54,759 nucleotides of DNA from assembly GCA_964016885.1 (NCBI GenBank), contig CAXHJY010000067.1, positions 1 through 54,759 on the forward strand, read 5' to 3'. This document shows, piece by piece, positions 7,174 to 54,759 of this stretch. This DNA comes from Eledone cirrhosa (Eukaryota). The first letter of the stretch is position 1, and each line of letters opens with the position of its first letter. Both the position numbers and the translations under genes were made by a program. Under the pieces are notes generated by a model. The model was not told the origin of the DNA. It saw only the letters and a program-made list of their open reading frames with translations, and did not search any database.

Positions 7174-7836
7174 TATCGGTAGAGTGTCGGACGCCATGCT
7201 TTCCAGCATAGAGTTACGTCCCTTTACGGTCTGAGTTCAAATCCCGCCGAGGTTAACTTTGCCTTTCATCCTTACGGGGTCGATAAAATAAAGTACCAGT
7301 AATACACTGGAGTAATTGCTGGCCTTGTGCCCCCAAAAGTGGAAACAATTATTACGGGGTCGATAAAATAAAGTACCAGTAATACACTGGGGTAATTGCT
7401 GGCCTTGTGCCCCCAAAAGTGGAAACAATTATTACGAGGGTCGATCAAATAAAGTACCAGTAATACACTGGGGTAATTGCTGGTCTTGTGCCCCCAAAAG
7501 TGGAAACAATTATTACGGGGGTCAGTAAAATAAAGTACCAGTAATACACTGGGGTAATTGCTGGTCTTGTGCCCCCAAAAGTGGAAACAATTATTACAGG
7601 GGTCAGTAAAATAAAGTACCAGTAATACACTGGGGGTAATTGCTGGTCTTGTGCCCCCAAAAGTGGAAACAATTATTACGGGGGTCAGTAAAATAAAGTA
7701 CCAGTAATACACTGGGGTAATTGCTGGCCTTGTGCCCCAAAAGTGGAAACAATTATTACGGGGGTTGATGAAATAAAGTACCAGTAATACACTGGGTAAT
7801 TGCTGGCCTTGTGCCAAAAATAGAAATAATTATTAT
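7174..7836 (+). mobile_element. SINE, slightly 5'-truncated, with its ~80-bp 3' segment repeated 7 times
   Basis: B box gagttcaaatcc near 7233; units ttacggggtc..taaaataaagtaccagtaatacactggggtaattgctgg.cttgtgcccccaaaagtggaaacaatta start at about 7272, 7352, 7432, 7513, 7594, 7676, 7756. Confidence 0.92.
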
Positions 7837-24678: not shown

Positions 24679-25678
24679 TACTAACTACTGTACATTAGAT
24701 AATGTAGTCCTAGGTACACCATGTCTGATAGCCACTAATACTAACTACTGTACTGTACATTAGATAATGTAGTCCTATATACACTATGTCTGATAGCCAC
24801 TAATACTAACTACTGTACTGTACATTAGATAATGTAGTCCTAGATACACTATGTCTGATAGCCACTAATACTAACTACTGTACTGTACATTAGATAATGT
24901 AGTCCTAGATACACTATGTCTGATAGTCACTAATACTAACTACTGTACTGTACATTAGATAATGTAGTCCTAGATATACTATGTCGGATAGCCGCTAATA
25001 CTAACTACTGTACTGTACATTAGATAATGTAGTCCTAGATACAATATGTCTGATAGCCACTAATACTAACTACTGTACTGTATATTAGGTAATGTAGTCC
25101 TAGATACACTATGTCTGATAGCCACTAATACTAACTACTGTACTGTATATTAGATAATGTAGTCCTAGGTACACTATGTCTGATAGCCACTAATACTAAC
25201 TACTGTACTGTACATTAGATAATGTACTCCTAGATACACTATGTCTGATAGCCACTAATACTAACTACTGTACTGTACATTAGATAATGTAGTCCTAGAT
25301 ACACTATGTCTGATAGCCACTAATACTAACTACTGTACAGTACATTAGATAATGTAGTCCTAGATATACTATGTCTGATAGCCACTAATACTAAATACTG
25401 TACTGTACATTAGATAATGTAGTCCTAGGTACACTATGTCTGATAGCCACTAATACTAAATACTGTACTGTACATTAGATAATGTAGTCCTAGATACACT
25501 ATGTCTGATAGCCACTAATACTAACTACTGTACTGTACATTAGATAATGTAGTCCTAGATATACTATGTCTGATAGCCACTAATACTAACTACTGTACTG
25601 TACATTAGATAATGTAGTCCTAGATACACTATGTCTGATAGCCACTAATACTAACTACTGTACTGTACATTAGATAAT
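24679..25678. repeat. 65-bp minisatellite, about 15 copies
   Basis: Unit ctaactactgtactgtacattagataatgtagtcctagatacactatgtctgatagccactaata; starts at 24741 and 24806 give period 65. Confidence 0.95.
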
Positions 25679-36810: not shown

Positions 36811-36935
36811 TATACACACACACACACACACATATATATATGTATATATGTATATTTACATATAGGCAAAATGATTAATGAAAGAGTTACACGCCATTAA
36901 AAAGCTCTGACATATGTTTCTTCGAATGTAGATAT

Positions 36936-37280
<345 letters not shown>

Positions 37281-37283
<3 letters not shown>

Positions 37284-37539
37284 CTCAACCACAGTGACAC
37301 AGAGGAGACTGAGGTTAGCTGGACATGCTCACCGACATCCAGAGTTGACATTGCACTCAGTGTTCCTTTGGGAGCCCCTACATGGACACACTAGAAGAGG
37401 AAGACCAAGGTTAACGTATGTTGATGCCCTAGGGACAGACACTGGTCTGTTGGAGACGCAGGACATGGCAGCGATAATGAGGGACAGAGACCGCTGGAGA
37501 GAACTCGTCCATGGATCTCGGGAATTTTACCCACCTTAG
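37281..37539 (+). mobile_element. 3' segment of the same RTE-like LINE
   Basis: [46 protein letters not shown]...[18 protein letters not shown]; paralogue of 3368-3619. Confidence 0.88.
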
Positions 37540-37672: not shown

Positions 37673-38032
37673 TACATATATATCAAAACAACACAGCCTG
37701 ATTACGTCTCATTTGTTCTGAAGAAAGATTATCCCTCAAACATCTTTGTCCGTCGTAAATAATCTAATCGCAATAGTTTATTTCTGTTGTTGTTCTTATT
37801 GTTTGTTTTCTACACTTCTTCTTAATGATAATTGGGTTAATTACAAGCCTCATTGTAGCTGCTGTTGTTGTTGTTGTTATTGTTGTAGCTGTTGTTGTCT
37901 TTGTTTTGGTAGTATTGAAGCGAAGGTCAACTGTAATATCGTAGATTTCATGTCGCGAAGGAATTTTTGTATTAAAAAAAAATCAATTGATGAAGATTGT
38001 TGTGTTATGGGGGGGGGGGGGGGGATTGCTCG

Positions 38033-38033
<1 letters not shown>

Positions 38034-38063
<30 letters not shown>

Positions 38064-38672
38064 ACTATTGTTGTATTTGTAGTTGCTGTTGTTGTTGTGG
38101 TGTGGAAAGTGTTGTTGTTGTTGTTGTTGTTGTTGTTACTATTGTTGTATTTGTAGTTGCTGTTGTTGTTGTGGTGTGGAAATTGTTGTTGTTCTTGTTG
38201 TGGTGGTTGTTGTTACTATTGTTGTATTTGTAGTTGCTGTTGTTGTTGTGGTGTGGAAAGTGTTGTTGTTGTTGTTGTTGTTGTTGTTACTATTGTTGTA
38301 TTTGTAGTTGCTGTTGTTGTTGTGGTGTGGAAAGTGTTGTTGTTCTTGTTGTGGTGGTTGTTGTTACTATTGTTGTATTTGTAGTTGCTGTTGTTGTTGT
38401 GGTGTGGAAATTGTTGTTGTTCTTGTTGTGGTGGTTGTTGTTACTATTGTTGTATTTGTAGTTGCTGTTGTTGTTGTGGTGTGGAAAGTGTTGTTGTTCT
38501 TGTTGTGGTGGTTGTTGTTACTATTGTTGTATTTGTAGTTGCTGTTGTTGTTGTGGTGTGGAAAGTGTTGTTGTTCTTGTTGTGGTGGTTGTTGTTACTA
38601 TTGTTGTATTTGTAGTTGCTGTTGTTGTTGTGGTGTGGAAAGTGTTGTTGTTCTTGTTGTGGTGGTTGTTGT
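38034..38672. repeat. 74-77-bp minisatellite built from (GTT)n, about 8 copies
   Basis: Recurring gttactattgttgtatttgtagttgctgttgttgttgtggtgtggaaa; ORF starts at 38308, 38385 and 38462 show period 77. Confidence 0.92.
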
Positions 38673-38804
38673 TTAGCCCAAGGTCAAAGTTGATCGAGAG
38701 GATATTTTTTGCGGTTCAACATTCGTGTGTCAAATTGATTCAATATATTTACTCGTTGATCTTGGTGTTGTTGTTGCTATTGTTGCTGTTTTTGTAGGTG
38801 TTGT

Positions 38805-49772: not shown

Positions 49773-50234
49773 GGCGAGAGAGGGAGAGAGAGGTAAGTAG
49801 ATGTGCGTATATTATATATATATATTGTATATATATAAAGAGAGATATATAGATAGAGAAATAGCCAGATATACATATATAAATGTAGGCAGACATAAAG
49901 ATAGACACCAAATACAGGGACAACCAGAAATACAGACAGACAGACAGGCAGACAGACAGACATATAGACAGGCAGACAGACAGACAGACACTCTGCTAAA
50001 CAAACTGAATCTCCCATTGAAATCTCATCGGCAGTGGAGATGGCGGAGAACTGCCACCAAAGGAGAATAAATCTTTGACAATGTAACCCTAAAATAGGAA
50101 TAGACGCGAACACGTGAATGCCAAACCGAAAGTGAAACTAAGATTTTACGTCTTTGTGAATATCGCGCCAAATACTTGATTGGTGATGTTGGTTATGAAG
50201 TTTTCTATTTCAACGTAGACACATCTTACATTGT

Positions 50235-50329
<95 letters not shown>

Positions 50330-50377
50330 GTATGTATATGTATAGATATATGTAAATATATATGTAAATATATATAT

Positions 50378-50411
<34 letters not shown>

Positions 50412-50434
50412 GTATATATATGTAAATATATATG

Positions 50435-50587
<153 letters not shown>

Positions 50588-50595
50588 GTATATAT

Positions 50596-50629
<34 letters not shown>

Positions 50630-51003
50630 AGATGTTATATATATGTAAATATATATATATATATATATATGTTACAATGTGAGATGTTTCTATATATATA
50701 TATATATGTGTGTATATATATACATATATATATATAAATATATGTATATATACATACACATATATGTATATAAATATATATATACTTACATATATACTTA
50801 CATACATACATACACACATACATACACTGAGAACTACAATATACTGAATCACAATCTTAGAAAAATCAAAAGATTAAAGCAAATAAAAGCTCATCTCCTG
50901 GAATCGATCTCCCTACTATTGCTTTGAAATTGACTGTCGTATCGATTATAACAAAAATTAAATAAATAAAATTCTGTTTTGTCTGTAACGACTTACGTGA
51001 TCG

Positions 51004-51052
<49 letters not shown>

Positions 51053-51111
51053 TACATTCATATACACACATATATATATATGTATATAATGTATATCACA
51101 TATATACATAA

Positions 51112-51171
<60 letters not shown>

Positions 51172-51348
51172 TACATTCGTATACACACACACATTTATAT
51201 ATATATGTATATATATGTATATACACATATATACATAAATATATATATATATATGAATATATATATATACAAACATACACATATACATATATACACACAC
51301 ACACATATATATATATGTATATATATGTATATACACATATATACATAA

Positions 51349-51381
<33 letters not shown>

Positions 51382-51432
51382 CAAACATACATATATAGAT
51401 ATATATACACACACACACATATATATATGCAC

Positions 51433-51520
<88 letters not shown>

Positions 51521-51676
51521 CACACACGTATATATATATAACTTATGGACATAAAATGACACTCCAAGTGTAGAAGGTAAAAGCGCCATTACAACGTCTC
51601 TTCTTTAAATGTTCCCAGATTTCCTTGCTTTGGTCTGCCATTCTTTTAATGATGCAAAGATGAAAGCAACGGCGTT

Positions 51677-51709
<33 letters not shown>

Positions 51710-51823
51710 GTGTGTGTATATATGTAAGGTAGTGTGTCTGTGTGTGTGTGTCTGTGTTTGTGTGTGTGTGTTTGTGTGTGGTTTGGTTGGGCAGATATAG
51801 ATTTATATAGGTGTAGACTTTTG

Positions 51824-51857
<34 letters not shown>

Positions 51858-51881
51858 TTTACGTACTACGCTGCGAATATC

Positions 51882-51945
<64 letters not shown>

Positions 51946-52021
51946 ATGTATGTATCTGTATATATATATACATGTAAATATGTTCATGCTTACGTATCTA
52001 TATATATCTATATATATGCAC

Positions 52022-52058
<37 letters not shown>

Positions 52059-52189
52059 TAGGGTGTATATATATATATACACATAGGGTGTATAATATAT
52101 ATATATATATATATGTGTGTATGTGTGTGTGTATCTGTATATATATACATATATATTCATGCATAAGTATCTATATTTATCTATATATA

Positions 52190-52235
<46 letters not shown>

Positions 52236-52316
52236 GTATATATATATACATAGGGTGTATATGTATATATATATATTCTTGGTGTCTGCGTTGGCAACAT
52301 GACCCTCCCAAAGTCT

Positions 52317-52360
<44 letters not shown>

Positions 52361-52672
52361 CCTAACAAAACCAGGCCTAGGAACTATATAAAAGCCACAA
52401 TATTATGGAAAACTCACCAATATGGTAACCAATATATATTAACCAACGCCAAAACGGTCATTCTGTTCTAATAACCAATATTTCGTATATTATATCAACA
52501 TTATATCTATTTCGTATATTATATCAACATTATATCTATATGAAAGCAATATGAATGCAATATTTCATATTAAATTCCTATATAAAATCCACTCTCAATG
52601 GATAAAATATAAAATTGGCATCAGAACGGTAATATAGTTTCATTTACATCTAGAAAATTTTATAGGAATATA

Positions 52673-53012
52673 AAATCTACCCCAGTATTTCACTGGTACT
52701 ATATTTTATAAACCCCAAAAGAAATCTTTGTTCATTAAATCTACCTCAGTATTTCACTGGTTCTATATTTTATCAACCCCAGAAGAAATCTTTGTTCATT
52801 AAATCTACCTCAGTATTTCACTGGTACTATATTTTATAAACCCCAAAAGAAATCTTTGTTCATTAAATCTACCTCAGTATTTCACTGGTTCTATATTTTA
52901 TGAACCCCAGAAGTATGAAAGGTAAAGTTAGTGTTACTCTATCAAATCTACCCCAGTATTTCACTGGTACTATATTTTATCAACCCCAGAAAATGTAAGA
53001 TAAAGTTAATCT
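52673..53012 (-). repeat. 64-bp tandem array derived from an old SINE body
   Basis: Units at 52673, 52737, 52801, 52865 and 52944 contain cagtatttcactggt.ctatattttat.aacccc; the fourth continues into atgaaaggtaaagtt as in the SINE. Confidence 0.8.
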
Positions 53013-53039
53013 TAGTTTTAATTCATATATACCCTTTTA

Positions 53040-53089
<50 letters not shown>

Positions 53090-53119
53090 AGATCAAAAGA
53101 TCGTTGAAAGAGTTCCAAG

Positions 53120-53190
53120 TATTTTATTATGCCCATTTCAAAAACAAATATCATCATGGGATGATATCTGCGTTTTCATCAGATAAAATA
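53120..53190 (-). ncRNA. Type I hammerhead ribozyme motif with long stem II
   Basis: Reverse complement: tattttat-CTGATGA-aaacgcagatatcatc-ccat-gatgatatttgttttt-GAAA-tgggcATA-ataaaata; stem I 8/8, stem II 15/16 including G-U, stem III ATG/CAT. Confidence 0.82.
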
Positions 53191-53281
53191 GGGATATATG
53201 ATATGAAGCTTAAAAAAACACTTGTGAATAGTGAAGTTTTAAATCAACATGCTTTATTGTGCTACAATAACCCCCCCCCCC

Positions 53282-53331
<50 letters not shown>

Positions 53332-53335
<4 letters not shown>

Positions 53336-53555
53336 AAAGTTTTATTTAAGATTGTTGGGTTACAACGAGTAAATATTTTATAACTGATATAAAAGCAGTC
53401 AACAGTTTTTGGAGTAGGTTTACGATATTAAACAAATGGAAACTATATTTATAAAACCATATTTATTTCGTTATATATATTTCTGGGATATCATGTTAAA
53501 AATATGGTATGCCTTCCTCAGACAAAATACAATATATAAGGTGTTTTATAAACAA
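53332..53555 (-). mobile_element. Single diverged arm of family B
   Basis: tgcaaaagttttatttaagattgttggg...taactgatataaa...gaaactatattt.ataaaaccatatttatttc, homologous to 21748-21965. Confidence 0.85.
53464..53529 (-). ncRNA. Type I hammerhead ribozyme motif (family B variant)
   Basis: Reverse complement: tattttgt-CTGAGGA-aggcataccat..atgatatccca-GAAA-tatatATA-acgaaata; G-C replaces A-U in stem I relative to other copies; base of stem II imperfect. Confidence 0.68.
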
Positions 53556-53563
53556 ATTTTTCC

Positions 53564-53597
<34 letters not shown>

Positions 53598-53685
53598 GGA
53601 AAAATTTGAACAGGGACAAAACAGAGAGGCAGTACAATAAATGTTTATTAATTTCACGCTCAGGAGAGTGGGGGGTAGGTGGGGT

Positions 53686-53717
53686 ACGACGTTTCGGGCA
53701 TAAGCCCTTCCTCAGGT
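53686..53717 (-). ncRNA. Minimal type I hammerhead motif, PLE-type (family D)
   Basis: Reverse complement: ac-CTGAGGA-a-gggc-ttat-gccc-GAAACGTC-gt; palindromic ACGT stem III, GUC site; AATAAA about 35 nt downstream; stem I only 2 bp. Confidence 0.72.
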
Positions 53718-53877
53718 GAGAAGTGTGTGGGAACAGAGTTCAAAGGTGTGTAGGGGAGTGGTGGAGAGACACACACACATATATATATATATATAAATAT
53801 ATATATATTATGAAGAGAGAAGAAACATTTAGATATAATTAGTAATAAAATGTATCATACCTAAACTGTTCCTAAAT

Positions 53878-53965
53878 TCCTCGACTACGTAGTTTCGTGG
53901 CATAAACAAAAACAATATATCAAAGATATAGAGTCCTTGCGAGGTCTGCCGACTTATCAAGAGGA
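53878..53965 (-). ncRNA. Type I hammerhead ribozyme, U3:A8 core variant (unit 1)
   Basis: Reverse complement: tcctc-TTGATAA-gtcggca...tgccac-GAAAC-tacgta-GTC-gagga; 5-bp stem I, palindromic ACTACGTAGT stem III, GUC site. Confidence 0.75.
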
Positions 53966-54468
53966 TACCTCATTTTACTAGTCTCAAGAACGCGTCTACA
54001 CGACGTGAGAAAGAATCCCAAAAGGCGGAGGGGGAGACAGTCACGCGATATAACGGTCGAGAAACAGAGCTAAGCCTCTTATAACCACGAAGAAAATACC
54101 ACGGAGGCGGAGGGGGTATTCATATCGAGGCCGTAGAAGAGGTAGTGAAGAAGGCGAGAAGTATGAGTAATGGAAGCTTTCCAGTTGTCCCCACACTTCA
54201 AAGATTGCTCGACCAGAGGGAGTTATTAATATATTTAGAAACACACAGATACATGCGGACACACACATATATACATGAATGCATCCGCACCCAACTGTGA
54301 GTTAAGGGTGCCAACTTCACCGATGTTGCTCAATGAATGACTGGGACAGACCAATTCAGTTTGAACCAGACTGAACCAGTATCAGAGTTAAAAATACATT
54401 ATGAAGAGAGAAGAAACATTTAGATATAATTAGTAATAAAATGTATCATACCTAAACTGTTCCTAAAT

Positions 54469-54556
54469 TCCTCGACTACGTAGTTTCGTGGCATAAACAA
54501 AAACAATATATCAAAGATATAGAGTCCTTGCGAGGTCTGCCGACTTATCAAGAGGA
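54469..54556 (-). ncRNA. Type I hammerhead ribozyme, U3:A8 core variant (unit 2)
   Basis: Identical to 53878-53965, shifted by 591 bp. Confidence 0.75.
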
Positions 54557-54759
54557 TACCTCATTTTACTAGTCTCAAGAACGCGTCTACACGACGTGAG
54601 AAAGAATCCCAAAAGGCGGAGGGGGAGACAGTCACGCGATATAACGGTCGAGAAACAGAGCTAAGCCTCTTATAACCACGAAGAAAATACCACGGAGGCG
54701 GAGGGGGTATTCATATCGAGGCCGTAGAAGAGGTAGTGAAGAAGGCGAGAAGTATGAGT

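Follow-up and report, generated by a model that had tools for sequence, protein, structure and literature searches.

A 591-bp tandem repeat with U3:A8 hammerhead motifs: most likely a young non-LTR retrozyme

The final 953 bases of the window (the whole stretch of DNA analysed, 54,759 nt) are occupied by a direct repeat with a hammerhead-like motif in each of its copies, and what kind of element this repeat represents is the question addressed here. Positions 53807-54168 were identical to 54398-54759, with 0 mismatches over 362 bases in a self-comparison (100 % in blastn), and 591 was the sole period between 560 and 619 that gave an identical run of more than 30 bases. The visible tandem amounts to 1.61 copies, namely one full unit (53807-54397, minus strand, 42 % GC) followed by 0.61 of another (54398-54759, minus strand, 362 bp visible), which is truncated by the window end. 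The low end of the full unit, at 53807, lies beside (TA)n and corresponds to its 3' end in ribozyme-strand orientation; the right end of the tandem and any target site duplication lie further on. Microsatellite matches aside, blastn found no further copies of the unit elsewhere in the window.

The unit is non-coding. Its longest stop-to-stop frames measured 86 and 71 aa and displayed no protein relic, no Pfam family reached its cut-off in 16 frames of the repeat, and no RT/GIY-YIG ORF was found in or between units up to 54759. The description given in the initial annotation, that of an identical direct repeat of period 591 lacking an ORF, was thus confirmed. A minus-strand frame of 47 aa (54082-54222) was considered as the end of a GIY-YIG domain and rejected: it yielded one match in 1.84 billion proteins (E 6e-4, 15 residues), which concerned a repetitive protein. 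No tRNA gene was detected in 53500-54759 and no B-box-like motif was found. A G-rich, GC-box-like direct repeat of 12 bases is present inside the unit (54023-54034 and 54105-54116).

On the minus strand, each copy displays the elements of a type I hammerhead in the order UCCUC, UUGAUAA, 57 nt from G10.1 to C11.1, GAAA, C-U-ACGU-A-G-U, C17 and GAGGA. In copy 1 (53878-53965) these correspond to stem I (5 bp, 53965-53961 with 53882-53878), U3 (53960), A8 (53955), stem II (53953-53897), GAAA (53896-53893), a palindromic helix III up to U16.1 (53884) and C17 (53883), with a predicted cut after C17, between 53883 and 53882. Copy 2 (54469-54556, U3 at 54551, C17 at 54474) is identical and shifted by exactly 591. 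Positions 3 and 8 are the only ones at which either core departs from CUGAUGA, as had been noted initially, and the accompanying proposal that U3:A8 is a compensatory 3:8 pair holds as well, such a pair being a published natural variant (PMC3088659, PMC4209133). Perreault et al. (2011) reported U3-A8 as a natural covariation of C3-G8 in several examples, and the in vitro activity of such pairs had been established before (PMC3088659). A matched double change of this sort is hard to get by decay. The Watson-Crick 3:8 pair, the GAAA and a correctly placed UH triplet (GUC) are visible in the sequence itself, while the three helices with an open helix I, the G10.1-C11.1 pair and the A15.1-U16.1 pair were present in the constrained fold, which for the 100-nt hammerhead reached -21.5 as against -22.6 for the free one.

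A loose descriptor, composed after the motif was seen (matched 3:8 pair, G10.1/C11.1, palindromic helix III, stem I of at least 4 bp), was satisfied once when the unit underwent 5000 dinucleotide shuffles; relaxed to a stem I of 2 bp, it gave four matches across the whole window. Scanning both strands of the window for matched 3:8 cores with a stem II returned three motifs, i.e. the two U3:A8 copies and a canonical one at 53715. Over the repeat, Rfam displayed neither a hammerhead family (6 weak matches) nor any other ribozyme family at E up to 10; over 50000-54759 and at E up to 1 it displayed no ribozyme and 84 matches, all to microRNA models and nearly all on simple repeats. Rfam appeared insensitive here, since the canonical hammerhead of the neighbourhood (53688-53715) was missed as well. 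The plus strand lacked any hammerhead core in a pattern scan of the whole window, and a rolling circle of two polarities is therefore not to be expected. This separates the unit from viroid-like RNAs with ribozymes in both polarities, which carry a motif on each strand (PMC8781251).

The element ends 76 bases beyond the cut site, where it abuts (TA)n at 53807; the (CA)n/(TA)n tract at 53769-53806 is its likely insertion target. PLEs are known for tandems, tails and a bias towards (TA)n and microsatellites (PMC8557442), and recently active PLEs were described in octopods, with 31 families in Octopus vulgaris (PMC13282606). On the other side of the tract lies the canonical (C3:G8) minimal hammerhead (53688-53715, minus strand), which was encountered in the scan and had been overlooked in the initial annotation. 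It belongs to an unrelated family outside the unit and displays C3 at 53715, an extra A after A9, a stem II of 4 bp and a stem I of 2 bp; it passed the descriptor with a 2-bp stem I and failed it at 3 bp. The fragment that contains it (53596-53775, minus strand, ~180 bp) has an AATAAA (53649-53644) after the hammerhead, gave no blastn match with the 591-bp unit and, in Rfam at E up to 10, only two matches, none to a hammerhead. It probably represents the 3' terminus of a different PLE family, inserted in the same microsatellite and in the same orientation. A perfect palindrome of 56 bp (53553-53608), with (TA)n at its centre and non-microsatellite arms of 13 bp, is located at the 3' end of this fragment and may be an inverted stump of an insertion end.

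The unit was also found in other sequence data. Among 24 listed public runs, 20 held part of it and 14 held at least half of the sampled words, under 11 organism labels and in 10 studies; the six runs with word shares of 0.22-0.35 were excluded from the evidence, and the share of 0.00 in X21 and X24 is not proof of absence. The listed holder runs include no RNA run and are uninformative on expression. Four of the 24 runs were compared in detail (X1, X9, X13 and X22). The joint from 54397 to 53807 was present, at 99 % identity or more, in X1, X9 and X13, that is in three of the four (or in two of three without X1, which is a possible source). An assembly artefact, which the initial annotation had named as a possible explanation of the duplication, was consequently rejected as the origin of the joint.

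In X1, a single contig of 621 bases (591 plus an overlap of 30, depth 7.8) formed a closed cycle with no flank, compatible with either an RNA circle or a DNA array; the six other records of this run were all microsatellite matches, at depths of 2 to 61. X9 held two pieces, 53932-54118 and 54089-54397, the latter joined to 53807-53868 and 30 unplaced letters, with a gap at 53905-53931 and a break at 54089-54118 (depths 12.6 and 10.2). In X13, (TA)10 was joined to 54227-54397, which continued to 53807-54086. Contig ends in low-depth runs of this kind can be assembly effects and holes prove nothing; the contigs of X9 and X13 end close to the G-rich 12-base repeat (54086-54118). The main contigs of X1, X9 and X13 differed from the window by 1, 1 and 2 letters, respectively. 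Both copies in the window carry a C (54038/54629) where the three runs display T; a private letter common to both copies would be expected if one template had been copied twice, and equally if the assembly were collapsed. U3 and A8 were covered in all three runs with no alternative letter listed at either, and U3:A8 is therefore the core of the family rather than that of one decayed copy. X22, a raw Hi-C run of 1,938 million letters from a study that includes another run holding the unit, gave five reads, all on the internal microsatellite.

The tandem, its motif, its non-coding content, its (TA)n neighbour and the recurrence of joint and core in other runs are most likely those of a young, non-coding, head-to-tail, non-autonomous non-LTR retrozyme derived from a PLE terminal repeat. 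As in retrozymes, at least two consecutive tandem units are present, each with a complete type I motif, and the unit is non-coding, with a GC content of 0.42 (below 50 %) and a stably self-paired monomer. As in PLEs, the hammerhead lies in a repeat and the insertion in a microsatellite or AT-rich site, while no ORF was encountered up to 54759. The initial annotation had proposed a young non-autonomous element mobilised by PLEs; its age, non-coding nature and head-to-tail arrangement were borne out and the (TA)n site fits, while the part played by PLEs would follow by analogy.

The units could instead constitute a doubled pLTR that forms the 3' terminus of an autonomous PLE, the ORF of which would be located past the window end; the 591-nt piece would then be a by-product unable to spread by itself. 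The window does stop inside the repeat, partial tandems and pLTR-borne hammerheads are both known from PLEs (PMC4209133, PMC8557442), and among animal PLE motifs U3-A8 was first noticed in the Cercyon element (PMC4209133); the break of the X9 contigs at 54089-54118 may, in addition, mark a minor branch elsewhere. However, an ordinary PLE has the end of its ORF directly upstream of the last pLTR, where another unit was found here, X1 assembled as a cycle without branches, and the unit displays no relic of an ORF. This alternative is thus considered unlikely.

Predicted folds of the minus strand modified one feature of the motif and reinforced another. Stem II had been described as opening into an insert of about 45 nt; it was predicted instead as a single imperfect hairpin of 57 nt (53897-53953), with 20 pairs arranged as 2+4+8+6, G10.1-C11.1 kept and a bulged C after the second pair, at -16.6 kcal/mol (z -3.5, equalled by two of 500 shuffles). 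The suggestion that the palindromic helix III lets the motifs act as dimers was favoured by the predictions: in a minus-strand transcript of 953 nt, the perfect 10-nt palindrome (53884-53893) paired with that of the next copy (54475-54484) with a probability of 0.83-0.98, as against 0.00 within the copy, and the duplex was estimated at -12.9 kcal/mol. The dimer-active fold (-270.1) was favoured by 8.4 kcal/mol over two monomer-active folds (-261.7). In the unconstrained fold (-276.1) the two palindromes were already paired, which places the predicted active dimer 6 kcal/mol above the minimum. Stem I, on the other hand, was nearly absent from the predicted ensemble (pair probability of at most 0.02) because a small hairpin of 4 bp with a 3-nt loop (53961-53971, minus strand, pair probability 0.68-0.86) competes for its 5' strand. 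In these models this hairpin would be a possible brake on cleavage.

The predicted monomer between cut sites (53883-54473, minus strand, 591 nt) was 63 % paired as a circle and folded at -173.0 kcal/mol (z -6.7 with 60 shuffles; z -8.3 with none of 40 shuffles as low). The circle of the opposite strand reached -130.3 (z -1.4, four of 40 shuffles as low). G-U pairs numbered 32 out of 186 on the ribozyme strand and 16 out of 162 on the other. This strand-specific folding is the best sign that the unit was shaped as ribozyme-strand RNA in single-stranded form, although part of the difference in folding between the strands may reflect the higher U content of the ribozyme strand, preserved by the shuffles. 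In the predicted circle, a hairpin of 19 pairs (53821-53873, minus strand) follows the cut site immediately on its 3' side and stops 14 bases short of the insertion end. X9 also held a diverged contig of 151 bases over 53807-53904 (11 differences, two gaps, depth 2). Three of its six listed substitutions fell on unpaired positions, one changed G-U to A-U and two broke a pair, while its two deletions lay on opposite arms of a hairpin; judging from these letters, the changes are too little to count as covariation. Older subfamilies of the unit probably exist, as suggested by this contig.

A second alternative takes the repeat for a pLTR-derived satellite, amplified as DNA by unequal crossover and catalytically silent, whose motif is intact through youth only. 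It agrees with the blocked stem I of the predictions and with the inactivity of eight out of nine tested Xenopus dimers, for which satellite-like local amplification was proposed (10.64898/2026.07.22.740005), and a long homogeneous array would also yield the closed cycle of X1. Against it stand the specificity of folding for the ribozyme strand, the matched change of U3 and A8, difficult to obtain by decay, and the two distinct (TA)n joints, at 53807 in the window and at 54227 in X13, both AT-rich spots of the unit, which point to insertion events. A silent satellite is accordingly regarded as distinctly improbable.

Should the repeat be the retrozyme that we favour, the minus strand would be the RNA, in which successive motifs are predicted to join, by pairing of their 10-nt palindromes, as a dimer that cuts between 54474 and 54473 and between 53883 and 53882, releasing the 591-nt monomer. 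Cutting would be slow or protein-assisted because the small hairpin competes for stem I. By analogy with published retrozymes, a host ligase would then close the monomer into a circle (RtcB closed a retrozyme circle in vitro; PMC7229834), and an autonomous PLE would supply the reverse transcriptase and the GIY-YIG nuclease that nick an AT-rich microsatellite and copy the RNA into it. A circle or multimer copied more than once round would leave tandem copies with variable ends, and the variable ends seen beside (TA)n do agree with a template of circular or multimeric form. The protein of the one reconstituted PLE cuts AT-rich DNA and begins reverse transcription inside its RNA, at an initiation site not homologous to the target; the ribozyme of this element required protein, and insertion could proceed without it, so that cleavage need not belong to the jump (PMC11167929).

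The weakest alternative, that the unit currently passes from one animal species to another, as a horizontal retrozyme or a viroid-like circle sometimes reverse-transcribed into DNA, starts from the 14 of 24 runs with at least half of the sampled words and from contigs of X1, X9 and X13 that are nearly identical to the window and yet end differently, but it is scarcely credible in view of the low depths (5.9-12.6), of X22 with no read on the unit outside the microsatellite, of organism labels that are coded and may designate sister species, of the absent plus-strand hammerhead, of published retrozyme sequences being species-specific (PMC7229834), and of index hopping, which produces exactly such a pattern for abundant tandem repeats (PMC12692304). 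Low depth, the flankless X1 cycle and the blank X22 fit carry-over between pooled libraries, while X9 and X13, with their distinct ends, agree with genuine single insertions; for the copies under many labels, library carry-over of an abundant repeat is more likely than horizontal spread. That a retrozyme with U3:A8 and a long stem II is now crossing species barriers, these copies being germline or somatic insertions, appears very unlikely. Were they real insertions, the finding would matter far more, retrozymes having been described as species-specific (PMC7229834), and a crossing retrozyme would be a horizontally spreading animal ribozyme circle, between transposon parasite and viroid.

Pattern scans for relatives returned 0 loci in metagenome contigs, viral contigs and prokaryote genomes. 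With a pattern of 18 bases, 18 loci were retrieved from metagenomes, none of which displayed an upstream hammerhead core or a match to the unit beyond 25 bases. Twelve of these 18 (L002-L008, L010, L011, L013, L014 and L016) form one bacterial intergenic repeat family, unrelated to the unit, of ~130 bp with a palindrome of 44 bases, sometimes in tandem and distributed over two metagenome assemblies.

Other repeats were observed in the window. Tandem arrays at 7272-7815 (81 bp, 6.8 copies) and 52673-52913 (64 bp, 3.8 copies) share a core and appear to resemble pieces of an abundant octopod SINE; together with the microsatellite load, they would point to an octopod host. Minisatellites are located at 24686-25678 (65 bp, 15.3 copies, 96 % matches) and 38032-38673 (77 bp, 8.4 copies). 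A stop-free frame at 36856-37284 (minus strand) displayed no Pfam family at E 0.001; its first 75 residues presumably resemble the C-terminal region of a protein encoded by RTE-type non-LTR retrotransposons.

If the retrozyme reading is true, a large retrozyme family is invisible to standard CUGANGA descriptors and to Rfam, and published retrozyme counts would accordingly be low. The repeat would also provide a natural and very young test case of dimer cleavage by a U3:A8 core that has a long stem II and a competing hairpin. Each ingredient is already in print, and the finding is useful to specialists and unsurprising.

In the mostly open-access main texts searched, no description of a tandem U3:A8 retrozyme was found, nor any paper on cephalopod hammerheads by title; the combination of U3:A8, a 57-nt stem II, a 10-base palindrome and an exact tandem was likewise not found in print, although figures and supplements may contain U3-A8 motifs that have long stems or stand in tandems. 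Animal non-LTR retrozymes are the closest known systems (PMC7229834, 10.64898/2026.07.22.740005). They match, and descend from, PLE terminal repeats, and their units range from 51 to 972 bp according to the preprint of Li, Clavereau and Pollet (2026), in which eight of nine predicted Xenopus dimers showed no cleavage in vitro (10.64898/2026.07.22.740005); the 591 bp of the present unit fall within this range. Like them, it is arranged head-to-tail and non-coding, with one type I hammerhead per unit, a GC content below 50 %, a strongly self-paired monomer and a dimer-type helix III. Unlike them, it displays a U3:A8 core, and its stem II of 57 nt contrasts with the ~4 bp and loop 1-loop 2 contacts described for animal retrozymes. 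Tandem type I hammerhead repeats yield circles in coral, mussel and axolotl, and the animal circles validated by northern blot measure 170-400 nt (PMC7229834); the unit exceeds this size.

Schistosoma mansoni harbors ~1,300 minimal U3-A8 motifs, mostly single, which were traced in 2014 via the Cercyon PLE (PMC4209133). They share with the unit the core covariation and an animal PLE context; they are minimal, mostly single and heterogeneous, whereas the motif described here stands in an exact tandem. In the minimal type, moreover, A9 is followed by an additional base and helix II measures 7-8 bp, while the unit lacks this base and displays a much longer stem II and a helix III of 3 bp closed by a palindromic loop. 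The U3-A8 hammerheads of Perreault et al. (2011) were not placed in retrozyme tandems in the text available (PMC3088659). Atypical pLTR hammerheads are known from Drosophila virilis Penelope and from PLEs of rotifer, shrimp and mosquito; like the unit, they have a helix II with a bulged base and a helix III that is small and palindromic (PMC4209133). That of D. virilis has a helix I of 2 bp and a helix II of 6 bp, and all of these hammerheads, unlike the unit, sit in or derive from ORF-bearing elements (PMC4209133). Set against these systems, U3:A8 is not in itself new, and the repeat is most likely a new animal retrozyme with an uncommon ribozyme.
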